Source: an uncultured Gammaproteobacteria bacterium
GTDB lineage: Bacteria > Patescibacteriota > Microgenomatia > UBA8517
Reading direction: 5' to 3'
DNA: 64,000 bases
Assembly (NCBI GenBank): GCA_964494885.1
Contig: CAZBTH010000002.1
Coordinates: forward strand, 29,271 to 93,270
Shown piece by piece: positions 8,097 through 22,661 of the stretch. The position numbers and the translations under genes are program-made. The notes under the pieces were generated by a model. It did not search any database. It saw only the letters and a list, made by a program, of their open reading frames with translations, and was not told the origin of the DNA. Position 1 is the first letter of the stretch. Each line of letters opens with the position of its first letter.

Positions 8097-10724
8097 ATGG
8101 ATATCGGTAAAATTCAACAAACAGAGATAACCACAGAGCTTTCTAAATCATATTTGGATTACGCAATGAGCGTTATCGTTGCCCGAGCCTTGCCGGATGT
8201 ACGGGACGGACTTAAGCCGGTTCACAGGAGAATTTTATATGCAATGCATTTGATGGGACTTCATTTTGTAGGTTCTTCCACAACAAAATCTGCTAAGGTC
8301 GTTGGAGAAGTTTTGGGTAAATATCATCCACACGGAGACATGGCAGTCTACGACGCGATGGTTCGGCTTGCCCAAACCTTTTCGATGCGCTACCCCTTGG
8401 TCCATGGACAAGGAAACTTTGGGTCTGTTGATGGCGACCCGCCAGCAGCCATGCGTTACACCGAGGTTAAACTTGCCAAAATCGCGGACATGATGCTTGC
8501 GGATATGGAGAAAGAAACCGTAGACTTTACGGACAACTTCGACGCAACACTTAAAGAACCGGTTTTTCTTCCCGCAGTTTTACCCAATTTACTCCTTATG
8601 GGAAGCGAGGGAATCGCGGTCGGAATGGCAACAAAAATCCCTCCACATAATTTAACTGAACTTGTTGACGGAATATGCGCCATGATCAAAAAGGGTAAAG
8701 TTATTACCGAGCAAAAGGCACAGGAAGAACAAACAGATTTCGTTATCAAAAAGATCAATCTGGTAGCTTCAGGCGGGTCCAAAGCGTTAACTGAGGCGGA
8801 GGTTAATCCGACAGCAGTTTCTTTTGAAAGCGAAATTGATATTGACGAGCTCACCAATATTATTCCGGGCCCGGACTTTCCTACTGGGGGAGCAATTTAT
8901 GATGCCAACGGACTTAAAGAACTTTATGCAACAGGTCGCGGCAAAATAGTTGTCAGAGGAATTGCAGAAATTGTAGAGGGTGTTAAAGGTAAACAGCAAA
9001 TAATAATTAGTGAACTTCCGTATCAGGTCAATAAAAGTGAACTTGTAGCCAAAATTGCCGAACTTGTAAAAGATAAAAAGGTTGTAGGAATTGCAGATCT
9101 TAGAGATGAAAGCGATAAAGACGGTATGAGGGTGGCGATAGATCTCAAACGCGACGCAAAACCAAAATCTGTTTTGAATAATATTTTCAAACACACCAGA
9201 CTTCAAAGTAGCTTCCCTGCGAATTTTGTGGCACTTGTTGACGGCACCCCCCACACATTAAATCTCAAAACAATTCTGGTTGAATACGTTAAACATAGAC
9301 AAAGAGTGGTCATAAGACGTACCATCTTTGAGTTAACGGAGGCCAAAAAGCGAGCTCATATTTTGGAAGGGCTTAAAATCGCATTAGACAATTTAGATGC
9401 AGTAATCAAAACCATTAGAGAAAGTAAAACTCAGGAGGATGCAAAGAAAAACTTAATTGAAAGATTTAAATTGTCCGAAATCCAAGCAACCGCCATTTTA
9501 GATATGCAACTCAGACGCCTTGCGGCACTTGAGAGGGAAAAAATTGAGAAAGAATATGCAGAAATTAAGAAACTGATAGACCAACTTGTTGCGATCTTAA
9601 AAGACCCTAAGCAGGTTTTAAATATTATTGTTAAAGAACTTGGGGAGTTAAAAGAAAAATATGGTGATGCAAGACGAACAAAAATCTACAAAAACCCGCT
9701 CGGGGAAATCAGCGAAGAAGATTTGGTTGCCAAGGAAGAAACATTGATTACAGTCACAAAAACGGGTTATGTTAAACGTCTTTCTGCCACAAGTTACCGC
9801 GCACAGCGTCGGGGAGGGAAGGGTGTAATCGGAATGGCAACAAAGGAGGAGGATGAAATAGAACACATTCTATCGGCAACCACCCACGATACGATATTAT
9901 TCTTTACCAATAAAGGCCGTGTTTTCGGGCTAAAAGCATGGGAAATTCCTGAAAGCAGTAGACTGGCAAAGGGACAGGCCCTTGTTAACTTATTGAATCT
10001 TGAACAGGGTGAAGAAATAAAATCTATTTTACCGCTTTCAAAAGAAATGGGGATTAAAAATTTGGTAATGGCTACCAAAAACGGACTCATTAAAAAAACA
10101 AGTATCGATCAATTCGAAAATTTGAGGGCATCCGGGCTAATAGCAATCAAGCTTAGGGATAATGACATGCTCATTTCTGTTCACCCGACTACTGGCGACG
10201 ACCATATTATTCTTCTTACTCGGAACGCCAAGTCAATAAGATTTCCAGAGACAAATGCCAGGCCCATGGGTCGTGCCACAACCGGAGTCACGGGAATAAA
10301 GATGGACGCTGGGGATGAGCTGATTGGAATGGAAGTCTTCCCAGCAAAAGAAAATATCCCAGCTGACAAAAGGAAAAAGTTCTACCGCGATATTTTGACA
10401 ATTGCCGAGCACGGACTCGGGAAACGTACCCCAATTCATCTTTTCCCTATACAAAAAAGGTCTGGCAAAGGTGTTAAAGCGGCAGTGGTTTCAGCAAAAA
10501 CCGGGGATTTAAAAACAGCCGCAATGGTCACTGAAAAATTTGATCAGGTGATAATTACTTCAAAAATTGGGCAGGTGATTAAACTACCATTGAAAAATAT
10601 TCCCCAACTTGGAAGAGCTACGCAAGGAGTAATACTTATGCGCTTTGCGGATAAAGCAGATTCTGTTGCCGCAGCAGCTGTTTTGGAAAAAGGAGTAGAC
10701 GAAGAAGAAGAGGAAGAGGATTAA
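8097..10724 (+). CDS. gyrA: DNA gyrase subunit A
   Basis: [15 protein letters not shown] and YHPHGD motifs, AAMRYTE active-site Tyr, repeated C-terminal blades, acidic tail DEEEEEED. Confidence 0.95.
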
Positions 10725-10729
10725 CAAAT

Positions 10730-11388
10730 ATGGCTGATCGTGCAGACATAGACAAAAACATACTTCAAAATAAACCAAAACAAGAAGAAATCCCTTATAA
10801 ATTTCACGGCAACTACACAAAGGAGGAGCTTGGTGTTTTAGCTGATTTTATGCATGCCGAGTTCCCACATATTACATATGGGGGGGGAGAGATAGAAAAA
10901 TCATTATTGAAGTTCCACCGAAAGATATCTGCTCTTTTGATGAATGGAAACAAATTTTAGACACAGTTCTTGCTCCAGAAATAAAAACATTTCACCCAAC
11001 TATTAGAAGAAATCAGGAAATCATTGTTCGTTTTGTGAATAAACTCTGGGACAGAAACAATGCTCTAGAATCAGGTGGAACCGGCATGGGTCACAATGAT
11101 GAGCATTGGTTTCGACTATCAATAAATGGCAAAAGTAAAGAAGATTTAACTTTTTGTTTGATGCACGAACTTGTTGAATATGATTTTTGGGAAAAAACGA
11201 AACCTGGCGACACTGAAGCCGAAGTCAAATCTACAGACGAAATTAATGCTTTCAAAGCAGATGATCTAACTTACCAGAACTTACTTGACGAGAAAATTGC
11301 TAACCGAAGAGCTTTAAAAGCGGTTAGAAGAATGTGGCCTTTTGCTCATTTTGATAATCCGGACATGATCTATGGCGAAGACAAATGA
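10730..11388 (+). pseudogene. Hypothetical protein gene interrupted by a frameshift at a G8 homopolymer (10880-10887). The ORFs at 10730-10960 and 11035-11388 are one gene if a G is added
   Basis: Frame 1 is open with no start codon from 10801 to 11034 and overlaps the frame-2 ORF across the G8 tract; with G9 there is a continuous 219-codon ORF. Confidence 0.5.
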
Positions 11389-11390
11389 AT

Positions 11391-11420
11391 AACCACCAGC
11401 TTACGCAGGTGGTTTCTTCT
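11391..11420 (+). terminator. Hairpin AACCACC-N10-GGTGGTT after the 11035-11388 ORF
   Basis: 7-bp stem followed by a TCTTCT run; weak T-tract. Confidence 0.3.
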
Positions 11421-11599
11421 AACCCGATTAACTAAAGTTAATCGTCCTCGCATAGAATGCTCGGAAAATCTTCATCGCACTTGCTTACGCAAGTGGTTTA
11501 ACCGATTTGTAGTTATAAAAAGATCGCATAATTCCCCCTCTGAGTTCAGCTTCATTTATTTTTTCAAAGCTTAACTTTTTCCTACCTCCATCCTCAAAT

Positions 11600-11625
11600 A
11601 CTATAATAATATATATTATTATAGT
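11600..11625. repeat. Perfect 26-bp A/T-only palindrome ACTATAATAATATATATTATTATAGT, 7 bp downstream of the yerC-like stop
   Basis: The reverse complement is identical; a second copy (24 of 26 identical) lies at 12085-12110. Confidence 0.8.
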
Positions 11626-11631
11626 TAGAGG

Positions 11632-12078
11632 TTAAATTTTTTTAATAAATCTTTTAATTTTTCTATCCCTTTCCAAAATTGGCTTTCGATATACTTCACC
11701 AGTTAGGGTCCTCTTTTTCTGTGAGAATATTCCCAATATTTCTTCAATTAAAGCCATACCCAAATCTGAATTAGCTATATTTTCCGCTACTTTTTTTACA
11801 GCCCCATTACCGTATTTTATCTTCAAGCTCATTTTGTTGATAGTATTGGGGGTTACCCGTAAAATATTTGATATATTTTCGTAAATATTTCCTTTTTCTA
11901 AAAGTACGGCAATTGCCAACCTTTTAGCAAGTATTGTTTTTTCGATAGGGGATAAGAAATCATTCAAAAAGTTAATTATTTCTTTTTTATTTCTAAATTT
12001 AATTAGTGTATTTTCCAGAAGATCATAAATTCTTTGATCTACTTCTGGTCTCAATCTTATTTTCGAAACCTGTGTCAT
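11632..12078 (-). CDS. TrpR-like DNA-binding protein, YerC/YecD family
   Basis: LSPIEKTILAKRLAIAVLL...NISNILRVTPNTINKMS matches the TrpR/YerC helix-turn-helix core; a paralog lies at 20398-20844. Confidence 0.65.
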   Translation of the reverse strand: MTQVSKIRLRPEVDQRIYDLLENTLIKFRNKKEIINFLNDFLSPIEKTILAKRLAIAVLLEKGNIYENISNILRVTPNTINKMSLKIKYGNGAVKKVAENIANSDLGMALIEEILGIFSQKKRTLTGEVYRKPILERDRKIKRFIKKI

Positions 12079-12084
12079 ATGTTT

Positions 12085-12110
12085 ACTATCTTAATATATA
12101 TTATTATAGT
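12085..12110. repeat. Second copy of the 26-bp palindrome (ACTATCTTAATATATATTATTATAGT), 6 bp upstream of the yerC-like start; contains a TATAAT
   Basis: 24 of 26 identical to 11600-11625. Confidence 0.75.
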
Positions 12111-12194
12111 AAAACACAGAAAGTCAAACAACAACTAAACTAGCAATCAACTAATTGCAAACAATATAAATTTGATTTAATATAGTATTAACTT

Positions 12195-12959
12195 ATGGAA
12201 GAAAAGAAAACTATTCCGCCACAAGCAAACTCCGCAGGGGCAGTAATAATATTTTTTATTCTTCTTTTTGTTTTCGCCAAGTGGGGACCGGCAATTAATT
12301 TTTCGACAACGTCGCAATCAAAAGGTGAGCCGTTTGTTGTAAGCGGGGAGGGAAAGGTCTCGGTAACACCAGATGTCGCGAAAATCACCTTTGGTATTCA
12401 GGAGAACGGACAATCCCTGAAACAAGTTCAGGGTGAAGTAAACACTAAATCTAAAACCTTGACCGCCGCAGTTAAAAAGCTGGGCATTGCCGACAGCGAT
12501 ATTAAAACTACCTCATACAATGTCTACCCTCAATATGATTACACAAATTCAAACCAAAAAATAACCGGATACCAAGTTTCCACTGATTACCAGATCACCG
12601 TCAAAGACTTCGACAAAGTAAATGAGGCTATTGTCGTGGCCACATCGGCAGGGGCAAATATTATTGGAGGGGTTAGTTTTGAACTAGACGACTCCACAAA
12701 ATTAGAAAAAATGAACGAAGCCCGCACTAAAGCTGTTGCAGACGCCAAAACTAAAGCAGAGGGGTTGGCCAGTGCCGCAGGAATTTCTTTGGTAAAAATT
12801 ATAAATATTTCTGAAAATCAAAACCAGAATATCAGGCCTTTTGCATTTGCCGAAAAAGCAGTGAGCTTGGACACGGGAACACCTGCCGCCAAACCTGATA
12901 TCCAACCCGGCGAAACCGAAATCCAGTTAACTGTTTCCCTGTCTTACGAAATTAGATAA
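12195..12959 (+). CDS. SIMPL/DUF541 (YggE-like) periplasmic protein
   Basis: N-terminal TM helix; GEGKVSVTPD...ITGYQVS...VSFELDD pattern characteristic of the SIMPL family. Confidence 0.65.
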   Translation: MEEKKTIPPQANSAGAVIIFFILLFVFAKWGPAINFSTTSQSKGEPFVVSGEGKVSVTPDVAKITFGIQENGQSLKQVQGEVNTKSKTLTAAVKKLGIADSDIKTTSYNVYPQYDYTNSNQKITGYQVSTDYQITVKDFDKVNEAIVVATSAGANIIGGVSFELDDSTKLEKMNEARTKAVADAKTKAEGLASAAGISLVKIINISENQNQNIRPFAFAEKAVSLDTGTPAAKPDIQPGETEIQLTVSLSYEIR

Positions 12960-14010: not shown

Positions 14011-15062
14011 ATATATTTTTAGATACTTTCAAAAATTACACTGTTGAATCCGTAACAAGCGGGCACCCCGATAAAATCTGCGACCAAGTTTCCGATGCTA
14101 TTCTGGATGAGTGTCTCCGTCAAGATCCCAAAAGTAGAGTTGCCATAGAAAGTTTTGGCGCGCACGGACTTTTTGTGATTGGCGGAGAAGTCACGACCAA
14201 TGCTAAGTTTGACGCAAAAAAAATTGCAGCCAGAGTTTACAAAGAAATAGGCCACCTTGATAAACTTAAATTTGTAACAAACATAATTAAACAATCCCCG
14301 GACATTGCCATGGGGGTAGATACAGGCGGGGCAGGGGACCAGGGCATTATGTACGGATTTGCGACTGACGAGACCCCCGAATATTTACCCAAAGCCGTTG
14401 CACTTGTTCACAAACTTACAAAAGGACTGGAAGACCTGAGAAGATCAAAAAAAATTAAATGGCTCCTCCCCGATGGCAAAGCCCAGGTCACAATAGAAAA
14501 TGGAAAAATCAAAACAGTTTTAGTTTCGGCACAACACAAGAAAGGTGTAAAGCTTGAACAAGTCCGCAAAGAAATTTCCGAAAAATTAATTAAAAAGCTT
14601 GTTCCTGGTATTAAAGACAAAAACATTTTGGTTAACCCTACAGGTAAATTTGAAGTCGGAGGGTTTATTGCCGATACGGGCTTAACCGGTAGAAAAATCA
14701 TGGTTGACTCTTACGGCGGTCTTATTCCACACGGCGGTGGAGCGTTTTCCGGAAAAGATCCTACAAAAGTGGACAGGAGTGGCGCCTACATGTGCCGATT
14801 TGTTGCTAAAAATCTGGTTGCAAAAGGCAAAGGCAAAAGTGTTCTGGTATCAGTTGCCTATGCTATCGGTAAAGCCGAACCTTTAATGGTCGATGCCAAA
14901 AACGAAAAGGGTAAAGATCTTTCAGACTACGTTAAAAAACATTTCGACTTTAAGCCCCTGGCAATTATCGAAAAACTAAAACTTAGAAGCCCCATTTATT
15001 CCCAAACCGCCGCCTATGGCCACTTCGGCAAAAAAGGCCTCCCTTGGGAAGAAATTGAATAA
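14004..15062 (+). CDS. metK: S-adenosylmethionine synthetase
   Basis: ESVTSGHPDKICDQVSDAILD N-terminus aligns to MetK; GGGAFSGKDPTKVDRSGAYMCR near the C-terminus. Confidence 0.9.
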   Translation: MKNIFLDTFKNYTVESVTSGHPDKICDQVSDAILDECLRQDPKSRVAIESFGAHGLFVIGGEVTTNAKFDAKKIAARVYKEIGHLDKLKFVTNIIKQSPDIAMGVDTGGAGDQGIMYGFATDETPEYLPKAVALVHKLTKGLEDLRRSKKIKWLLPDGKAQVTIENGKIKTVLVSAQHKKGVKLEQVRKEISEKLIKKLVPGIKDKNILVNPTGKFEVGGFIADTGLTGRKIMVDSYGGLIPHGGGAFSGKDPTKVDRSGAYMCRFVAKNLVAKGKGKSVLVSVAYAIGKAEPLMVDAKNEKGKDLSDYVKKHFDFKPLAIIEKLKLRSPIYSQTAAYGHFGKKGLPWEEIE

Positions 15063-15112
15063 ACTGTCTCACCCTCAAACTTTTAAAGCGATATAATTAA
15101 TATATAACTCCC

Positions 15113-16108
15113 ATGTCAGATTTTGATAAAAATGAGGGATTTTTACAACCAGCCGAACAGTACAAACCGTCTGTCAAATTTATCCAAATAAGACATTCCG
15201 ACAATGATGCGCCAAATGTCTGGTTAGAAGCAAAAAAAAACGATGTTATTTTACTTGAAGTTGGGGATCTAACAATACATGAACGAGAGGCTCGCGAAAC
15301 AGGTGCCAATAGTGTAGCTTCTTTAGAAGATCCTACAGAAAGAAAAAGAAAACTCGGTAATGCCTATTCAGATGGATCTTTCTTATCGCAAATCATGAAG
15401 GGTGCAATACTCGAAGGGAAAGAAATTCACTTTGTCGACATTCCAGAAAACCACGATACTAATAAAACTCAAAATGAGGAATTGAGTTACTTACAAAAAA
15501 GTTATGACTGCTTTTTTGAAGCCGATTTCAAAGGTTCATTATTACATCTCCGCAATTACATACTTGCCGATGGTGAGTCTGGTCAACTTCGAGAAAAAAT
15601 CGTAGTTTCTCAAATTGAAAATTTATTACAAAAAAATCAAACAAAATGGAAGAATAAATCTGTCTGTGTTATCCAGGGTATGAACCATGTTAAAAGTTAT
15701 CATATTTTCAAAAATAGAAACCCAGGGGTATCATCCTCACGTACTTTTTTGAATGGAAAGCGATTCTCTTTCTTACTTGAACACGAGGCACGACAAAGAT
15801 TAAATGCGGGTTCCAAAGAAGATCAAAAGTTATCTATTGAGCGCTTATTCATTTCTCGCCTAATTTTGCCGGCACTTATAACAGATGAAAATATCAATGA
15901 AAAAAATAAAAAAACGGATGAATTGGCCAGGATGATTGGTAGAGATGAAATCAACACTATTTTTAAAAAACTTACCGAAATACGAAGAGATGTGAAATCG
16001 GAACTCCACATGAATAACCCAGAATATATTAAAGCATACATTAATAAACGAGTTGAGCTTCTCGCACAACAAATATTAGAACAGCATCCTCTTTCGCAAA
16101 AAATTTGA
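15113..16108 (+). CDS. Hypothetical protein, paralog A of a tandem pair; possibly distant TraB/GumN/TIKI-like
   Basis: Clear paralogy to 16279-17322 (FIQIRHSD..DVILLEV and KWKNKSVCVIQGMNHVKSYHIF against FVQIEHAPEN..DVVLLEC and KWKNKTICVIQGQNHSRTYHIF); the GxxH motif and N-terminal pattern resemble TraB/TIKI, at low confidence. Confidence 0.5.
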   Translation: MSDFDKNEGFLQPAEQYKPSVKFIQIRHSDNDAPNVWLEAKKNDVILLEVGDLTIHEREARETGANSVASLEDPTERKRKLGNAYSDGSFLSQIMKGAILEGKEIHFVDIPENHDTNKTQNEELSYLQKSYDCFFEADFKGSLLHLRNYILADGESGQLREKIVVSQIENLLQKNQTKWKNKSVCVIQGMNHVKSYHIFKNRNPGVSSSRTFLNGKRFSFLLEHEARQRLNAGSKEDQKLSIERLFISRLILPALITDENINEKNKKTDELARMIGRDEINTIFKKLTEIRRDVKSELHMNNPEYIKAYINKRVELLAQQILEQHPLSQKI

Positions 16109-16185
16109 CCTCTGCTGTGATTGAACGAGCAATGCCGATTGGTAGACGCGTTAATGACCTCAATTAAGTCTAAAAACGTGGTGTC

Positions 16186-16227
16186 CACTTCGGCAAAAAA
16201 GGATTGCCTTGGGAAGAAATTGAGTAA
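16186..16227 (+). pseudogene. Remnant of a metK 3' end (encodes HFGKKGLPWEEIE-stop)
   Basis: 39 coding nt plus stop aligned to 15024-15062 with 4 nt differences, all synonymous; an in-frame TAA lies 4 codons upstream, so it is a fragment only. Confidence 0.6.
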
Positions 16228-16278
16228 CTTTTCCTTCCTCAATGACTATTAAAGAGATACAATAGTTGTGTATATATT

Positions 16279-17322
16279 ATGGAGTTATTTGACAGATTGA
16301 ACATACCATTATTAAAAAGGGCACAGGAATCCAGAGTGAGATTTGTGCAAATTGAACACGCTCCTGAAAACGCAACCAAGATCTGGGAAGAGGCGAGAAA
16401 ATACGACGTTGTTTTACTTGAGTGTACAAACGTTTCGGAAAAACGACGAGTCGATCTTGAAAATACGATAAACAAAGTATCGTCACTAGAAACACGGTCT
16501 CAAAGAGAGAAAGTTCTCGGAACCGTCTTCTCAGGAAAAGAATTTGACAATCAAATAATTAGAAGTTTAATCCTTGAAGGTAAAGAGTTCCATTATATCG
16601 ATGTTTTTGACAATGACGAAGCGAACACACTACGCAGAGAATCAAGGACGCTAAGGAAACTGGAAACTGATTATTTTTGTCAAGGTAAATTTGATCTTTC
16701 GTTTGTCTATTCTAAAAAAGCCACCATCGCTAGAGCCCATAGTGATTTTGCAAGAGAAGAAGTAGTTTCAAAACAAATAGAGGATCTAAGAACCAAATCG
16801 TCGAAAAAATGGAAAAATAAAACTATATGTGTTATACAAGGTCAAAATCACTCTCGAACTTATCATATATTCAAAAGGGATTACCCCTCGGTAGAATCTT
16901 CGAGAACATTTCTTGAAGACGACGTGTTTGTCTTCTCCCTCACAACCGAGGCTAAAAATCGCCTCCTAGCTGGATCACCAGAAAGTCGAGAAATTGCTTT
17001 CAAAAGGTCATTTATTGCACAAAATGTTTTGTTTCCACGGTCGGACAGCGACCAAGATATCGGAGAAAGAATAGAAATATCTGACAAAATTGCCAGAAAT
17101 CTATCTACAACCGAAATTGACGAGATATTTACTAGTCTAACAATGATCCAACAATTTATTCGGGAAAATTTTAGCAATATGCCAGACTTGGCCACATTTT
17201 ATGCTTTAAAACATGCTGAAATTTTAGGTCGACAGATAATCGAAAAACACCCACTTTTTCCCGAAAATTCGACACAAGTAGTATGTCATCCTCCCCGCCA
17301 TTCTGGCTGGGTAGCCGTCTAA
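16279..17322 (+). CDS. Hypothetical protein, paralog B of the tandem pair
   Basis: Collinear similarity to 15113-16108 along most of its length. Confidence 0.5.
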   Translation: MELFDRLNIPLLKRAQESRVRFVQIEHAPENATKIWEEARKYDVVLLECTNVSEKRRVDLENTINKVSSLETRSQREKVLGTVFSGKEFDNQIIRSLILEGKEFHYIDVFDNDEANTLRRESRTLRKLETDYFCQGKFDLSFVYSKKATIARAHSDFAREEVVSKQIEDLRTKSSKKWKNKTICVIQGQNHSRTYHIFKRDYPSVESSRTFLEDDVFVFSLTTEAKNRLLAGSPESREIAFKRSFIAQNVLFPRSDSDQDIGERIEISDKIARNLSTTEIDEIFTSLTMIQQFIRENFSNMPDLATFYALKHAEILGRQIIEKHPLFPENSTQVVCHPPRHSGWVAV

Positions 17323-17401
17323 ACGAGGATGACATATCAGCGTTCAATTCATCCGCGGGCTCATCGCCCTTGGTTTTCTTGAATGCTGTTATAATATATC
17401 C

Positions 17402-19120
17402 ATGCCTGAACAAACCGAAGTACTCGATGCTTACGAAGAAAAGTGGGGTGAATATAGTGAACCTGCCGAGCGCGGCGGGGGAAGAGGCAAACGCCCCAAA
17501 AACGGCCCCACCAAAAGCCAGGAGGCTTCATCTGCGGAAGAGAACGCAAGGCTTGCGCGTGAGCGCCAGGAGTTCGCTGAAAACCAGATCTTGGAATACG
17601 TTGATACCACCTGGAAAAGCTTCAAAGAGGAAGATCGGCCTAAAAAAATCGCTGAATACGCAAGATGGATGGAAAAGGCCGCCAAACAAAGAGAGTTTAA
17701 AATTGACACAAATGAAGTAAGGTTTAAATCTAAATTATCAAGCGGCAACGGTGGTCAAAATGTTCAAAAAAATGAAACCGCCATAGATGCTAAACATATT
17801 CCAACTGGACTTAGATCCGGCTCTCAGGACGAAACTAGCCAGCTACACAACAAACAAGTCGCACTTCAAATATTAACATTGAATATTAAATCTCAACTTA
17901 AACTCTGGAAAGAAACATCAAAAGAATTCAGGAAAAAATTAATGCACCCCGAAGAGTCCGAAAAATTCGAAACCGGTTTTGTGCCACTTCCCGAAGGAGT
18001 AACAATCGACAGCCTCAGGGCGCAAGTGCCGCCATCAGAAGAACTAACCGTTATGTTTGGTTGGGAAGGTGATATCGATGGTAAGCCCAAAAGCGCCACA
18101 GTCGCCGGTGAAAATTTTTATTTATATCCCGCAATAGAATACCGGGTAAATTATAATTCATCCCAAAATGGCGATGTCTACATGAACCCAGTTGACCTAA
18201 AAAGTGGCGCACCGGAAGTTTCCGATATCCCGGCCGCTCTTGATATACATTTGGCATCAGGAAAGGGTAGGCAGACATCATGCATTAATATTTCTGCTAA
18301 AAGTTCGGATGGGAAAATATCAAAAGCTATCGGTAAAATTCAAATGGGAATTGAAAGGTTGCAGGATATTGACAGACTCAAGACTTTTGCCCAAGAATAT
18401 TACCAATCGAATCTTGCGACCGATCTGAAAACAATAAAAGAAGCATTAGACATTACCACTTTTCAAGAAGGGTCCCGTGCAGACCAAATAATATACCGCC
18501 AAGCCTGGCTAATATTCGAAAGTGAGTTTTACATAAGATTAGATGAAAACAGGAATACAGACAATCTAAAGGAACTAATGCAAGACTCCCTGATTCAATA
18601 TATGGAGCAAATTAAAGATATTTTAGAAAACAGACCGACAGAATTAATTAATATAACCGACGACCCAAATAGCATAGTTATACATTTTGACACTATCCCA
18701 ACCGACTTAAGCGACCCGGATCATGGTCTTATTGTACTGACAACTTATATTCCGAACCGCGGTTGGACCGTAATGGCCCCAATTGGTGATTGCCCAAATT
18801 TTGCAGCCTACATGCTCAAGGATTTTGCCACCGGCCCGAACAAAGAAAACCAAGCATCAATATTTGCGTATTCATTTCAAACTGCGAAAGAGAGCGGAGA
18901 ATTGGACATTTTAAACGGCGGTAAAACATTATTGTTTAAAAACTTATCGGACCTTAATCCCTACATGGCCGTTTTTCATAGCGACGACCACACCCTCAAA
19001 ATGGCTTTAGAAACTCTCAGGGTTGCAGGGGATCCGGTTCTCGGAGAGGATACCTTTAATTTTATTATCTATAAAAAGAGCGAGGTTGTTCCTGAAATTT
19101 TATCCTTAGATTTGACATAA
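17402..19120 (+). CDS. Large hypothetical cytoplasmic protein (572 aa) with a charged, low-complexity N-terminus
   Basis: Long uninterrupted ORF with no recognisable motifs; follows the paralog pair. Confidence 0.5.
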   Translation: MPEQTEVLDAYEEKWGEYSEPAERGGGRGKRPKNGPTKSQEASSAEENARLARERQEFAENQILEYVDTTWKSFKEEDRPKKIAEYARWMEKAAKQREFKIDTNEVRFKSKLSSGNGGQNVQKNETAIDAKHIPTGLRSGSQDETSQLHNKQVALQILTLNIKSQLKLWKETSKEFRKKLMHPEESEKFETGFVPLPEGVTIDSLRAQVPPSEELTVMFGWEGDIDGKPKSATVAGENFYLYPAIEYRVNYNSSQNGDVYMNPVDLKSGAPEVSDIPAALDIHLASGKGRQTSCINISAKSSDGKISKAIGKIQMGIERLQDIDRLKTFAQEYYQSNLATDLKTIKEALDITTFQEGSRADQIIYRQAWLIFESEFYIRLDENRNTDNLKELMQDSLIQYMEQIKDILENRPTELINITDDPNSIVIHFDTIPTDLSDPDHGLIVLTTYIPNRGWTVMAPIGDCPNFAAYMLKDFATGPNKENQASIFAYSFQTAKESGELDILNGGKTLLFKNLSDLNPYMAVFHSDDHTLKMALETLRVAGDPVLGEDTFNFIIYKKSEVVPEILSLDLT

Positions 19121-19147
19121 CCCCATATCTAAAGTTATATTTACTAT

Positions 19148-19559: not shown

Positions 19560-19826
19560 TTAATTCCCAAACTCTCTACTTACCGGCAAGACACTTTGTT
19601 CTTGCTTTGTTTTTATCTTGATTAATAAAGCCTCAAGGGCTTCACCTGTAAGTGCTTGCCCCTCAACAGATTCACCACATTTTGGACACACAATCGAATC
19701 GTCAACCACCTTACCCTGGTAGCCACAACTAAAGCACTCAATGTCATGTGTAGCCCTACTCATGTCGTTATTGTACTCTAGGTTGTCAAATTTTGAAACT
19801 ACTGGTATTTTCAATTTATGACACAC
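19560..19826 (-). CDS. Small zinc-ribbon protein
   Basis: CFSCG...CPKCG double CxxC. Confidence 0.4.
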   Translation of the reverse strand: MCHKLKIPVVSKFDNLEYNNDMSRATHDIECFSCGYQGKVVDDSIVCPKCGESVEGQALTGEALEALLIKIKTKQEQSVLPVSREFGN

Positions 19827-19845
19827 TGAGTTAAAATACCTTATT

Positions 19846-20316
19846 ATGGTAATGGACCCCGAAGCAATTCAAGAAAACTTTGAATCTGACATGTACCAAA
19901 CGAAACGCCCTTCACTACCAGTTAGGGGCAAGGGGGCCGAAAGGCTAAGGATATACGAGACCGAAAAAGCCGAACAAGCAATTCAAAAACATGTACACTT
20001 TTTGGAATCGGATCAAAACCCAAAAACACGACAGGAAAAACTAGGCAAGTATTGGGGATGGGTCAATGAATGTATGAGAATGCGATACCTCCCCCAAACA
20101 GAAATTGAAGATTTTGAGATTTCTCAGACAGAAAACACAGTTACGGTACTTCACAAACCGTCACAATTGTCATCAACGTTTTCCGGAGCCAAAGACCAGC
20201 ACGAGAATGAGAAGGGTGCATACGAACGAATTTGGGGAATTCTCGAAGATCACAGAGATGCATGGAAACACAGGGTTTCCAAAAAATTCAAGGCAAGACA
20301 CAAAGTTATAAGTTAA
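19846..20316 (+). CDS. Hypothetical protein
   Basis: ORF only; start uncertain because only 19 bp separate it from the divergent upstream gene. Confidence 0.35.
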   Translation: MVMDPEAIQENFESDMYQTKRPSLPVRGKGAERLRIYETEKAEQAIQKHVHFLESDQNPKTRQEKLGKYWGWVNECMRMRYLPQTEIEDFEISQTENTVTVLHKPSQLSSTFSGAKDQHENEKGAYERIWGILEDHRDAWKHRVSKKFKARHKVIS

Positions 20317-20351
20317 TTAAATATTTTAGTTCTCTTACCAACTGTCTACAA

Positions 20352-20379
20352 TACTTTAATGATCTAGATCGTTAAAGTA
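20352..20379. repeat. 28-bp near-palindrome TACTTTAATGATCTAGATCGTTAAAGTA, 18 bp downstream of the second yerC-like gene
   Basis: Palindromic apart from one T/G position; the GATCTAGATC core is repeated in inverted form at 20853-20876. Confidence 0.7.
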
Positions 20380-20397
20380 TTTGCAGCAAAACTAGCC

Positions 20398-20844
20398 CTA
20401 GATTCCCTTCTTAAAACGGCTGATGTTTTTATTTCTTTGAAACACTTTTTTGTGATATTCACTTAAGGGTAAACCTTTTATTGGAATATTGAACATGCTT
20501 TGGATTTCCTCCCAAATTATTCTGGCCGAATCCCGCTTTAAAACATTCCCAACCACTTCATTCGTTCCCTTTTCTCCATACTTTATATGCAAATTCATTT
20601 TGGCAATCGTCGCCGTGGTAACATGCAAGATCCTTTTGATTTCCTCGTAACTGTTTCCTTTTGCCAAAAGTACTGCCAAAGCAAATCGTTTTGCCAACAT
20701 TATTTTTTCGGTAGGGGATAAGAAGTCATTTAGAAATATATCAAATTTCTCTTTGTTTTTGATTGAAAGAAGCGATTCACTAAAGAGGTTGAATATCCTA
20801 TCCCAAACTTCCGGTCTTAATTTAAACCTCGAAACCATTGTCAT
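20398..20844 (-). CDS. TrpR-like DNA-binding protein, YerC/YecD family (paralog 2)
   Basis: LSPTEKIMLAKRFALAVLLAKGNSYEEIKRILHVTTATIAKMN; same length and collinear with 11632-12078. Confidence 0.65.
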   Translation of the reverse strand: MTMVSRFKLRPEVWDRIFNLFSESLLSIKNKEKFDIFLNDFLSPTEKIMLAKRFALAVLLAKGNSYEEIKRILHVTTATIAKMNLHIKYGEKGTNEVVGNVLKRDSARIIWEEIQSMFNIPIKGLPLSEYHKKVFQRNKNISRFKKGI

Positions 20845-20852
20845 ATTAATAG

Positions 20853-20876
20853 TATATTGATCTAGATCATTAAACT
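20853..20876. repeat. Palindromic site TATATTGATCTAGATCATTAAAC, about 8 bp upstream of the second yerC-like start; includes a TATACT -10-like hexamer on the minus strand
   Basis: Shares TTTAATGATCTAGATC, in inverted orientation, with 20352-20379. Confidence 0.65.
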
Positions 20877-21004
20877 AAATGGGCTTAAAAAATCGTGATT
20901 ATTTATTAGGACATCAGCAGATGGTATCCGACAAAAATTCTAAAAAAGAATTTTCAGGTTAAGGTATTCTAGAAATTAAAGATTCTAATACCATCAAGTA
21001 AATA

Positions 21005-21649
21005 TCAAATATCAACCAATGGTTCCTTACTGTCTTTTACAAAGGCTTCATCGATTCTTTGCATTCCAATAAGATCCGGTTTAACCCTGATTAAATCTCC
21101 TCGTATAATACGATCTAAATATTTTTCTTTCAATGTTTCACTAAAAAGTTCAAATTCGCTATGGGGATCTGGATCACTCGGCTTAGGTTTAACAAAATGT
21201 CCAAATACATGCTCCCCATCTATTGTTGCATGAATGATGGGGTGTGCTGTGTTTGTTAGTTTATAAACAATCTCGACATCAGTAAACAACTCTGCACACG
21301 CAACGGCAAATAAAAAGGATGGTAACTTACAATCACGCCGCTCGGAATTATCAAGCTCCCGTACCTGCCCTCCTATTGTATTACATCCAGAGCGACGATC
21401 TTTAAACTGATAGTCAATTCCAACTTCTCGTCCTAGGTTCTCAAAAGTTTGTTTTTTGTAGTCTTCTGCAATATAACTTTTCGCATAAGCATGGGCGATG
21501 CCTTGCGCCTTAGAAAAATCTTCCACGGTACTTATTGGTAGCTCTCGAGGAATCCCAACCTTGTCTCTAGAATGTAGTCTGCGCACTCTTGTATATCCTC
21601 CATATTCCGTTCCCTCTTCAGCCCCCATGTTACTTTTCTCCTCTCCCAT
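21005..21649 (-). CDS. Hypothetical protein overlapping the recombinase gene by 20 bp and probably co-transcribed with it
   Basis: 214-aa ORF with no recognisable motifs. Confidence 0.45.
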   Translation of the reverse strand: MGEEKSNMGAEEGTEYGGYTRVRRLHSRDKVGIPRELPISTVEDFSKAQGIAHAYAKSYIAEDYKKQTFENLGREVGIDYQFKDRRSGCNTIGGQVRELDNSERRDCKLPSFLFAVACAELFTDVEIVYKLTNTAHPIIHATIDGEHVFGHFVKPKPSDPDPHSEFELFSETLKEKYLDRIIRGDLIRVKPDLIGMQRIDEAFVKDSKEPLVDI

Positions 21650-22661
21650 GGAATTGTTCGTGAATATCTCTTAATTGTTTATTGGTCACATGTGTATAAA
21701 TCTGAGTTGTAGAAATATTTTTGTGTCCCAACATCTCTTGTACCGAACGAATATCCGCCCCGGCGTTTAATAAATCAGTTGCGAAACTGTGTCTCATGAC
21801 ATGAGGCGTGACTTCCATCGGCATTTTCATTTTATGAGAATACTTTTTTATCATTCTCTGGACCGAGCGGGGAGTGAGTCTCATTTTTTCATCCGGCGTG
21901 GCCGGATCAGACTTCCCTTTGTGATGAATGAAAAGGGGTTTGTAGTGATCGCGCCTTTCATTTAAATATTTAATTAACCAATCAGTTGCACGGCTGGAAA
22001 GAAACACTACCCGAGCCTTTCCACCTTTTCCCACAATCCCGAATTCTTTTGTATCAAGGTTTACTTTGTCACGGTCAAGTTTGGTAAGTTCCGAAACACG
22101 AAGGCCTGTAGAAAATAAAACTTCCAAAATCGCTTTGTCCCGCTTACCCTGAATAGAATCTTGTGAGGGAGCATTCAGCATTCTGTCGACTTGCTCACCA
22201 CTTAAAAATTTTACCTGCCGTTCTTCCACCTTAGGCAAATCAATTTTATCCGGAGCCATAGCCTGAAAATCATTCCTAATAAGCCATTTAAGAAAACTTC
22301 TAAGAGCAATAACATGATAACTCTGAGTGCGGCGTCCCATTAGGTGACCATTTTCCCCAGGCAGGGTTGTTAAAAAAACTCTAAAACTCCTTACAATGTC
22401 CTGATTGATATCAATTATGTTTTCCCGGATTCCCTGAGATTCCATCCATAAAATAAGTCTGGATAAATAATGTCTGTAATTCCGAAGGGTTAGGGGAGAG
22501 GCGCCACGTTCTACCTGGAGATATTCCAAAAAGTCTTCAACCTTCTGAGCAATCTCTGAATTGTTAATTTGAGCAGACTGACTGTTTGCGAAACCCCTAC
22601 GAAGCCTTGGCGTAGTAGGGTTTGCAATTTCGCTTTGATTGATCGGTGCATTATCAACCAT
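21630..22661 (-). CDS. Tyrosine site-specific recombinase (XerC/XerD-like / phage integrase family) with a roughly 40-aa N-terminal extension
   Basis: EDFLEYLQVERGASPLTLRNYRHYL N-terminal SAM-like domain; catalytic R...HVMRHSFAT...LGHKNISTTQIYTHV (R-H-R-Y). Confidence 0.85.
   Translation of the reverse strand: MVDNAPINQSEIANPTTPRLRRGFANSQSAQINNSEIAQKVEDFLEYLQVERGASPLTLRNYRHYLSRLILWMESQGIRENIIDINQDIVRSFRVFLTTLPGENGHLMGRRTQSYHVIALRSFLKWLIRNDFQAMAPDKIDLPKVEERQVKFLSGEQVDRMLNAPSQDSIQGKRDKAILEVLFSTGLRVSELTKLDRDKVNLDTKEFGIVGKGGKARVVFLSSRATDWLIKYLNERRDHYKPLFIHHKGKSDPATPDEKMRLTPRSVQRMIKKYSHKMKMPMEVTPHVMRHSFATDLLNAGADIRSVQEMLGHKNISTTQIYTHVTNKQLRDIHEQFHGRGEK

Follow-up and report, generated by a model that had tools for sequence, protein, structure and literature searches.

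Paired palindromes around TrpR/YerC-like regulator genes of CPR bacteria: a putative self-regulating unit with a candidate second operator at the 3' end

The tryptophan repressor TrpR of E. coli is a homodimeric helix-turn-helix protein, and the palindromic operator of trpR overlaps the core promoter of the gene itself. Beyond trpR, the regulon includes trp, aroH, and mtr. To our knowledge, no second operator is found past the stop codon of trpR. Looping between two operators is known for LacI (O1/O2), GalR, DeoR, and the CI repressor of phage lambda, and these repressors form tetramers or octamers. In lambda the immunity region lies between the operators OL and OR, with the repressor gene enclosed by them, and specificity varies among related phages. 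The B. subtilis protein YerC, also named HisR, is a histidine repressor of the TrpR family that binds the 20-bp palindrome cacTTTAnnnnnnTAAAgtg (PMC9413887). The HisR motif, cacTTTAn6TAAAgtg, is found upstream of genes for histidine biosynthesis and uptake (PMC9413887).

The regulators described here belong to the same Pfam and TIGR family as HisR and display the same fold. Solved YerC proteins carry STATISRVN at the helix position where one of the present proteins (paralog 2, see below) has the similar TTATIAKMN. The operators are palindromic in both cases, and the arm ACTTTA, with which the paralog-2 half-site begins and which is common to the paralog-2 lineage, is also part of the outer half-site of HisR, cACTTTA...TAAAGTg (PMC9413887). 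However, HisR consists of about 100 amino acids, while these proteins have 145-150 and contain two extra C-terminal helices; the HisR operator is 20 bp long, while the sites found here are 26 bp with the ACTTTA arms 8 bp further apart. The sites also differ in that they flank the regulator's own gene, and its neighbours are unrelated to histidine metabolism. The 20-bp palindrome upstream of histidine genes that characterizes the HisR subfamily was not found at these loci. The likeness to E. coli TrpR lies in a predicted operator that overlaps the regulator's own promoter and in the fold, which matches the TrpR structures 1tro and 1trr, while the difference is that almost all sites here are found at the regulator gene itself, including a second one past the stop codon. 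With the looping systems these loci share two predicted cognate operators hundreds of base pairs apart, but here the spacing displays no helical phasing and the second site is only a few nucleotides away from the stop codon of a single small gene.

No description of this architecture or of CPR TrpR-like regulators was found in the literature searched, and the system is best filed as a variation on a familiar scheme, a putative CPR-specific, C-terminally extended autorepressor of the TrpR/YerC type with a predicted second operator at the 3' end and with paralogs that would not cross-react. The CPR bacteria (Patescibacteria) are uncultured organisms with very small genomes, and hardly any work has been done on their gene regulation. 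For a regulator family that is widespread among them, predictions are offered here of the operator sequence, the -35/-10 promoter, leaderless starts, and candidate specificity-determining residues. A conserved second operator at the 3' end could reveal control by looping or by roadblocks in minimal genomes, and the diversified pairs of protein and site could serve as orthogonal repressor-operator parts.

Two regulator genes and their flanking sites

The window, i.e., the whole 64-kb stretch of DNA that was analysed, comes from an uncultured CPR bacterium (Woesebacteria) and contains two such regulator genes, each placed between two palindromic sites. The features of importance are as follows.

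20398-20844, minus strand: paralog 2, a 148-aa TrpR/YerC-like DNA-binding protein (predicted from family and fold)
20353-20378: downstream (3') palindrome of paralog 2, 26 bp, plus-strand sequence ACTTTAATGATCTAGATCGTTAAAGT, 26.2 bits on the family matrix
20851-20876: upstream palindrome of paralog 2, AGTATATTGATCTAGATCATTAAACT, 21.1 bits on the family matrix; predicted operator within a leaderless promoter
11632-12078, minus strand: paralog 1, a 148-aa TrpR/YerC-like protein, 46% identical to paralog 2
11600-11625: downstream palindrome of paralog 1, ACTATAATAATATATATTATTATAGT, 13/13 pairs, 6 nt past the stop codon, 31.7 bits on the family matrix
12085-12110: upstream palindrome of paralog 1, 6 nt ahead of the ATG, 21.8 bits on the family matrix
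21630-22661, minus strand: Xer-type tyrosine recombinase, syntenic neighbour of the paralog-2 lineage, with no demonstrated role in the mechanism
21005-21649, minus strand: 214-aa ORF without a family match, a window-specific insert between recombinase and regulator

The original prediction for this locus placed near-palindromic sites on both sides of paralog 2, and both are indeed there, each 26 bp long; the downstream one may be extended to 20350-20381. The distances given were slightly off. Between the stop codon and the downstream 26-mer there are 19 nt and not 18 (16 if the extended palindrome is taken), and the upstream site ends 6 nt ahead of the ATG where about 8 had been stated. The two sites were also said to share a word in inverted orientation, and TTTAATGATCTAGATC occurs exactly once per site, on opposite strands. 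At one mismatch or less the core TGATCTAGATCA is found within the window in the paralog-2 sites only, against an expected count of 0.07, and none of 100 shuffles of the window contained two or more matches to it. Read on the gene strand, the upstream copy ends with a -10 box, TATACT, formed by its outer six bases (20851-20856), so that transcription would start at or next to the ATG. The site overlaps this box as had been proposed, and the proposed leaderless transcript is plausible at paralog 2 and family-wide as well (see below). The GATC motifs pointed out in the sites are incidental; they are not conserved, as the sites of two orthologous loci (L091 and L093) carry AATCTAGATT.

Paralog 1 displays the same layout as paralog 2 with a palindrome of its own. 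Its upstream site is found within a divergent intergenic region shared with a SIMPL-domain gene (12195-12959), and both paralogs face convergent genes. The sites of the two paralogs had been described as unrelated in sequence, and this did not hold. Both are 26 bp in the same register and share the frame ACTnTAATnATnTAnATnATTAnAGT, and a manual count gave agreement at 20 of the 26 positions between the paralog-1 downstream site and the consensus paralog-2 site in the version of L001, the closest relative of the window. Identical recognition helices, which the original prediction had named as an argument against separate specificities, were not found; the helices read VTPNTINKMSLK and VTTATIAKMNLH, with the stretch PNTINKMS in paralog 1 and TATIAKMN in paralog 2.

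Both proteins match the Pfam family Trp_repressor (PF01371) and TIGR02531 (YerC/YecD). For paralog 2 the Pfam match has an E-value of 2e-13 and 50.6 bits (cutoff 27), and the TIGR02531 score of 43.5 bits is just above the cutoff of 42.2, while paralog 1 at 34.5 bits is under it. An AlphaFold model of the paralog-2 monomer, built on 32 homologs (pLDDT 79), displays the TrpR fold at residues ~10-103, followed by two additional C-terminal helices at residues 107-118 and 127-147. The best Foldseek matches are the YerC-like structures 3frw, 3g1c, and 3kor. E. coli TrpR comes next, and the target-normalised TM scores of these matches are 0.72-0.85 over ~95 residues. Model and matches thus place paralog 2 among the all-helical TrpR-fold proteins with a helix-turn-helix. 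In size, however, these proteins depart from the single domain of ~100 aa that is usual in the TrpR/YerC family. The homologs are 145-150 aa long and are found in CPR bacteria, including Woesebacteria/Microgenomates and Shapirobacteria. A profile search gave 1225 representatives of 50%-identity clusters at E<=1e-10, with more distant TrpR/YerC relatives among them.

Occurrence of the layout and its promoter across the family

A total of 85 loci were fetched from genome and metagenome collections, and the gene and its flanks were located in each, giving 70 non-redundant records. Upstream and downstream copies that agree at 20 or more of 26 positions were found in 48 of these, and a wider search added six, so that about 54 of the 70 CPR metagenome loci are bracketed. 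Some 12 loci truly lack a downstream copy, and in several of these a long stretch separates the upstream site and the start codon. Typical positions across the family are 0-20 nt before the start codon and from -15 to +20 nt relative to the stop codon, with a few further away; in one locus (L003) the downstream copy reaches 15 nt into the 3' end of the gene. More than one paralog is found in the window and in the genomes of L060 and L067, and in L067 two tandem paralogs have a middle site in common. A separate CPR subfamily of 132-aa proteins (Nomurabacteria, Paceibacteria) has the same bracket with a different palindrome, CTATCATATATGATATACT, and here the downstream copy includes a TATACT -10 box.

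A position matrix was built from the bracketing copies. The positions A1 C2 T3 and A6 A7 T8 G9 A10 T11 are near-invariant, together with their mirror image, while positions 4, 5, 12, and 13 vary. Within the window the matrix matches nothing but the four bracketing sites of the two paralogs. Among the 149 matches in 352 kb of related loci, 73 are upstream copies, 62 downstream copies, and 14 others. Sites away from regulator genes are thus scarce, which is odd for a repressor, as it would control little beyond itself. Some of the extra copies are found ahead of neighbouring genes, in L022 and its relatives and in L002/L033, and this suggests an operator-like behaviour. The proteins encoded behind the extra sites of L022 (373 aa) and L002 (214 aa) have no Pfam match, and no relationship could be detected between the 373-aa protein and a 347-aa ORF of the window.

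The two copies of a locus resemble each other more than they resemble those of other loci, the average identity being 23.6/26 within a locus vs 18.3/26 between loci. In 24 of 43 loci no other locus provided a downstream site that fits the upstream site better than its own. Where the palindromes are imperfect, the imperfections are common to both copies, in direct orientation in 20 loci and in inverted orientation in four, and bases just beyond the palindrome are common to both copies as well. Imperfections in direct orientation are not required by a symmetric dimer; they could instead result from duplication or gene conversion.

The promoter was analysed in 47 non-redundant bracketed loci. A perfect TTGACA ends 3-4 nt ahead of the upstream site in 25 of these, and one more has a 5/6 match. 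TATCAT is found at site positions 15-20 in 23 of the 47 loci, giving a spacer of 17-18 bp to the -35 box. In 36 loci no more than 8 nt separate the site from the start codon, and a Shine-Dalgarno motif is missing in all of them; of the 11 loci with a longer gap, nine have such a motif. Given this -35/-10 spacing, the short gap, and the absent Shine-Dalgarno motif, leaderless mRNAs are to be expected for most of these genes, with the palindrome covering the spacer and the -10 box. The upstream copy of the window lineage deviates from the palindrome in its right arm, precisely where TATACT is formed, and L001 displays the identical deviation. The palindrome overlaps the -35/-10 region of the regulator's own gene, which is the arrangement of an autoregulated repressor; the repression itself is predicted.

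Each of the two paralogs had been proposed to carry its own cognate pair of sites, and the pairing is stable within each orthologous lineage. Paralog-1 orthologs (56-73% identity) are always found between gyrA and the SIMPL-domain gene and keep an ATATAT centre, while paralog-2 orthologs (51-86% identity) are always found downstream of the Xer-type recombinase, in a lineage that keeps a CTAG centre. The core ATCTAGAT is kept in paralog-2 orthologs down to 60% identity; the ortholog at 51% (L094) has TTACGTAA. When it comes to the proteins, the recognition helix begins with a motif, V[TS]xxT[IV], that sorts with the half-site variants. Homolog pairs of less than 55% identity that have residues 77-78 in common have half-sites alike at 10.5 of 13 positions vs 8.7 of 13 for the others, at equal overall identity (0.42). 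Among 124 dipeptides tested, residues 77-78 were the strongest informative one for half-site similarity, in an analysis that is confounded by phylogeny. The site variants thus track the first two residues of the recognition helix, with the same confounding of the covariation, and the difference in specificity proposed for the paralogs is in line with this. From an alignment with the E. coli protein, the two residues are taken, as a lead only, to be the equivalents of Ile79 and Ala80, known specificity positions of E. coli TrpR.

Proposed mechanism and role of the downstream copy

As the two-site layout recurs across the protein family, with a palindrome of its own for each paralog, it looks like a conserved self-regulating unit and not like a mobile cassette or the target of a recombinase. 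Judging from sequence comparisons, the regulator is probably an autorepressor of the TrpR/YerC family that has one operator within its promoter and another cognate one at the 3' end of the gene, the latter of which would act through looping or as a roadblock. The upstream palindrome would lie downstream of the -35 box and ahead of the transcription start in the regulator's own, mostly leaderless, promoter, and would contain the -10 box. Since it spans this region, a dimer or pair of dimers bound there would exclude RNA polymerase, as the anatomy suggests together with what is known about TrpR and HisR.

The same protein would also bind the second copy, a few bases from the stop codon, as an auxiliary operator. 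Both copies have the same invariant bases, and mismatches are tolerated at the same positions, 4, 5, and 9, in both, which argues for a site contacted by protein and not for a bare hairpin. A bare structural element would not be expected to keep identical bases, and we infer from this that one protein contacts both copies. The second copy may cooperate with the promoter operator by means of a ~480-bp DNA loop around the whole gene, or the bound protein may alternatively be a roadblock by which the transcription unit is terminated or insulated. The centre-to-centre spacing of the two copies is 467-498 bp, and the absence of helical phasing in this spacing (Rayleigh p about 0.3) provides no positive support for looping. 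The paralogous lineages would have diverged at the first residues of the recognition helix and at the matching operator positions, so that several units that do not cross-react would be able to coexist in a genome. The neighbouring Xer recombinase would have no part in this mechanism.

Several other functions may be considered for the downstream copy. It might constitute the operator and -10 box of a second regulated unit, which would be a co-directional gene that follows or, in the case of a convergent neighbour, an antisense RNA, but this is fairly unlikely. In about 14 of the 47 loci a co-directional gene does start 2-27 nt past the downstream site, with the same spacing as between the upstream site and the regulator, and in L078 and L083 an ATG is found 2 nt past the site. 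The direct orientation of the copies with their common bases beyond the palindrome, the shared middle site of the tandem paralogs in L067, and the -10 box in the downstream copy of the 132-aa subfamily also fit such a function. However, none of the 47 downstream sites is preceded by a -35 box at the 5/6 threshold, and most loci, those of both window paralogs among them, are followed by a convergent or a distant gene. The downstream copy is not tied to any particular downstream gene; what is constrained is how far it lies from the stop codon of the regulator (mostly -7 to +20 nt) and not from a downstream start. The close co-directional neighbours encode proteins without a common function, among them surface proteins, phosphoesterases, a nuclease, TsaE-Sua5, DUF59, and TyrRS. 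A regulon common to the downstream genes was looked for among these functions, and none emerged.

It is likewise not very likely that the unit represents a self-contained module of a new type, by which CPR bacteria would insulate or terminate transcription and in which the repressor would clamp both ends of the gene, through a loop or through paired roadblocks. The repressor concentration would then set both its own synthesis and the transcription that passes into or from neighbouring genes, and paralogs with orthogonal palindromes would be several independent modules in one genome. Such a module could account for the near-confinement of the sites to regulator genes, for the link between the second copy and the stop codon, and for the hot spots of variable small ORFs on either side. 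It is mainly the scarcity of sites away from regulator genes that keeps this idea alive.

It is quite unlikely that the downstream copy functions mainly as a hairpin in RNA or DNA. It would in that case be a terminator without a U-tract, possibly bidirectional, or a 3'-end stabiliser, serving the regulator and often a convergent neighbour, and its likeness to an operator would be due to duplication or dual use. The position close to the stop codon agrees with this, as do the convergent genes faced by both window paralogs and the loci that lack a downstream copy, several of them with a distant upstream site. The downstream copies of the window also fold well as RNA, at -14.8 and -13.6 kcal/mol (z -3.7 and -4.1), while the upstream copies are weaker at -4.0 and -9.2 kcal/mol. 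Family-wide, however, the downstream copies differ from the upstream ones neither in stem extension (p=0.53) nor significantly in folding energy (p=0.08), and G-U pairs on the sense strand are not clearly enriched among the mismatches, so an extra hairpin function finds no support in these three properties. A pure hairpin would moreover be expected to drift, while the downstream copy keeps the invariant bases and tracks the upstream copy locus by locus.

Ordinary bidirectional terminators, which the original prediction had itself named as a competing explanation for both palindromes, were rejected. No terminator-like site was found in 20250-21050 or 11500-12250, around the two window paralogs, no T-run follows the downstream copies, whose stems are A+T-rich and do not resemble those of intrinsic terminators, and matches to TGATCTAGATCA and to the matrix are confined to the brackets and not scattered through the window.

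Neighbouring recombinase, synteny and mobility

The proximity of the tyrosine recombinase and the 214-aa ORF to paralog 2, on the same strand, was correctly noted from the beginning. The recombinase scores ~260 bits on both the XerC and the XerD model and 220.8 on XerA (cutoff 220), and it is 97% identical in L001. The gene order of the paralog-2 lineage is YebC, DUF5656, x, Xer, variable small ORFs, TrpR, variable ORFs, and Cupin. The 214-aa ORF, which had been regarded as a partner of the recombinase, is absent from L001, and other small ORFs take its place in orthologous loci.

Short sites with inverted arms that bracket a gene are also found in the Xer/dif and Acinetobacter pdif systems, and in the window a Xer-type recombinase is adjacent to such a bracket. 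The palindromes might thus be core sites of this recombinase, between which the regulator gene could be excised or inverted. In agreement with this the neighbourhood is conserved in the paralog-2 lineage, and the centres of the palindromes differ between loci but agree within a locus, with the asymmetric copies arranged as direct repeats, as recombination partners need. Variable small ORFs are found on both sides of the bracket, and the outer edge of the paralog-2 downstream site is precisely where the homology with L001 breaks off. Against this, most of the ~70 records examined are bracketed, while a recombinase is found near the regulator only in the L001/L006 contig, in the distant L005, and in four loci orthologous to paralog 2; in the paralog-1 lineage there is none. 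Direct repeats 480 bp apart next to an active recombinase should lead to deletion of the gene, yet the unit is stable in synteny across 51-100% identity, and two types of site that differ in their arms would be beyond a single recombinase. The upstream copy furthermore forms part of a promoter whose TTGACA lies outside the bracket, and the family sites are linked to the regulator and covary with its recognition helix. Neither recurrent Xer co-occurrence nor varied contexts nor empty sites, as known from dif and pdif modules, were found for these units, and a function as recombination sites is highly improbable. The adjacency of the recombinase is, as far as gene order tells, conserved synteny only, and its relation to the sites appears to be as incidental as those of the 214-aa ORF and the GATC motifs. 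The imperfections in direct orientation and the edge of the homology can be explained equally well by common descent of the two copies and by a constraint that ends at the site. Among the variable ORFs next to the downstream site, the homology between ORF156 of the window and a 175-aa ORF of L001 is not significant (E=0.03).

The original prediction also suggested a self-contained cassette that might be met at different loci in related genomes, but both paralogs were instead found at conserved positions, paralog 1 between gyrA and SIMPL and paralog 2 in the order YebC-DUF5656-Xer-TrpR-Cupin. It is hardly credible that the unit is a small mobile or selfish element with terminal repeats bound by its own helix-turn-helix protein, in the manner of IS ends with InsA/OrfA: it is compact with repeats at both ends, the left of which overlaps the promoter as in many insertion sequences, several paralogs may be found in one genome, and the presence of paralog 1 differs between close relatives, but at neither paralog were a catalytic transposase, target-site duplications, or near-identical copies outside the syntenic position found, the paralogs are only 46% identical, each site is palindromic in itself so that the ends are not inverted copies of one another, and no relatives of the regulators were found in viral contigs. 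Mobility of the unit is therefore considered unlikely. More distant relatives have paralog 1 at the position where L001 lacks it, and L001 has thus evidently lost the gene. No leftover site was found as a scar at this position in L001, and the missing stretch extends well past the sites; it corresponds to 10716-12194 of the window and holds ORF117 in addition to the whole paralog-1 unit. Two further insertions are specific to the window in comparison with L001, one at 15060-19146 and one at 20954-21623.

Gene content around the two regulators

The entire unit of paralog 1, the 148-aa TrpR/YerC-like regulator at 11632-12078 (minus strand), is absent together with a neighbouring ORF (window 10716-12194) from L001, the closest relative of the window, where the gap between gyrA and the SIMPL-domain gene is 9 bp. 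The unit is present at the equivalent position in more distant relatives, and in some of these it is accompanied by a ParE/Phd toxin-antitoxin pair or by a response-regulator-like ORF. ORFs in regions that differ from L001 include the following.

Window ORFs in regions that differ from L001
11035-11388: ORF of 117 aa without family match
15113-16108: ORF without Pfam match, paralogous to the next
16279-17322: ORF without Pfam match, paralogous to the preceding one
17402-19120: 572-aa protein with an RF-1/GGQ peptidyl-tRNA hydrolase domain (E=6e-16)
19846-20316, plus strand: ORF that weakly matches an RF-1 domain (E=5.5e-4)

The 4.1-kb stretch at 15060-19146 also has no counterpart in L001; it contains the two paralogous ORFs, which are 38% identical, and the 572-aa RF-1/GGQ protein. 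In L001 the 590 bp immediately adjoining the downstream site of paralog 2 (19764-20352) give way to an equally long piece of non-homologous DNA, encoding a different convergent ORF of 175 aa (BLASTP against the window ORF, E=0.03), and still other small ORFs occupy this position in orthologous loci.

Palindromes in front of neighbouring genes

A promoter-like match on the plus strand at 12082-12110 (TTTACT, 17 nt, TATAGT) overlies the upstream palindrome of paralog 1 and is directed toward the divergent SIMPL-domain gene (12195-12959). Judged from this arrangement, paralog 1 may therefore control the SIMPL-domain gene as well. Extra copies of the locus-specific palindrome precede neighbouring genes in other loci, as in L022 (1731-1756; also L026, L038, and L040), where the gene is found directly upstream of the regulator and encodes a 373-aa protein without Pfam match. 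The same is seen in L002 (2358-2450; also L033); in L002 the copies form a tandem pair in front of a gene for a 214-aa predicted membrane protein, and this locus has no downstream palindrome copy.

Departures from the standard bracket

Five loci (L035, L042, L043, L055, and L063) lack the downstream copy, and their upstream palindrome is found 60-84 nt before the start, compared to 0-20 nt elsewhere. L035, L055, and L063 share the motif ATGCTnGAATT directly 3' of the stop codon, which could be the beginning of a co-transcribed gene. In L077 and L082 the CTAG centre is common to both palindromes, upstream and downstream, but their arms differ (17 of 26 positions agree). Such a bracket may either have been caught mid-divergence or be bound by two different paralogs.

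L067 (1141-2093) and L068 contain a tandem pair of paralogs of 147 and 141 aa. Both genes share one palindrome, ACTTTAATAATATATATCATTTAAGT, present in three copies in the order site-gene-site-gene-site.

The same bracket is displayed by a subfamily of 132-aa TrpR-like proteins that comes from Nomurabacteria and Paceibacteria.

132-aa TrpR-like genes in L095, L098, and L099
2501-2899 or 1103-1501: 132-aa TrpR-like gene

Their palindrome, CTATCATATATGATATACT, is shorter and different. Its two copies are in direct orientation, one some 12 nt ahead of the start codon and the other some 25 nt past the stop codon, with the TATACT -10 box inside the downstream copy.
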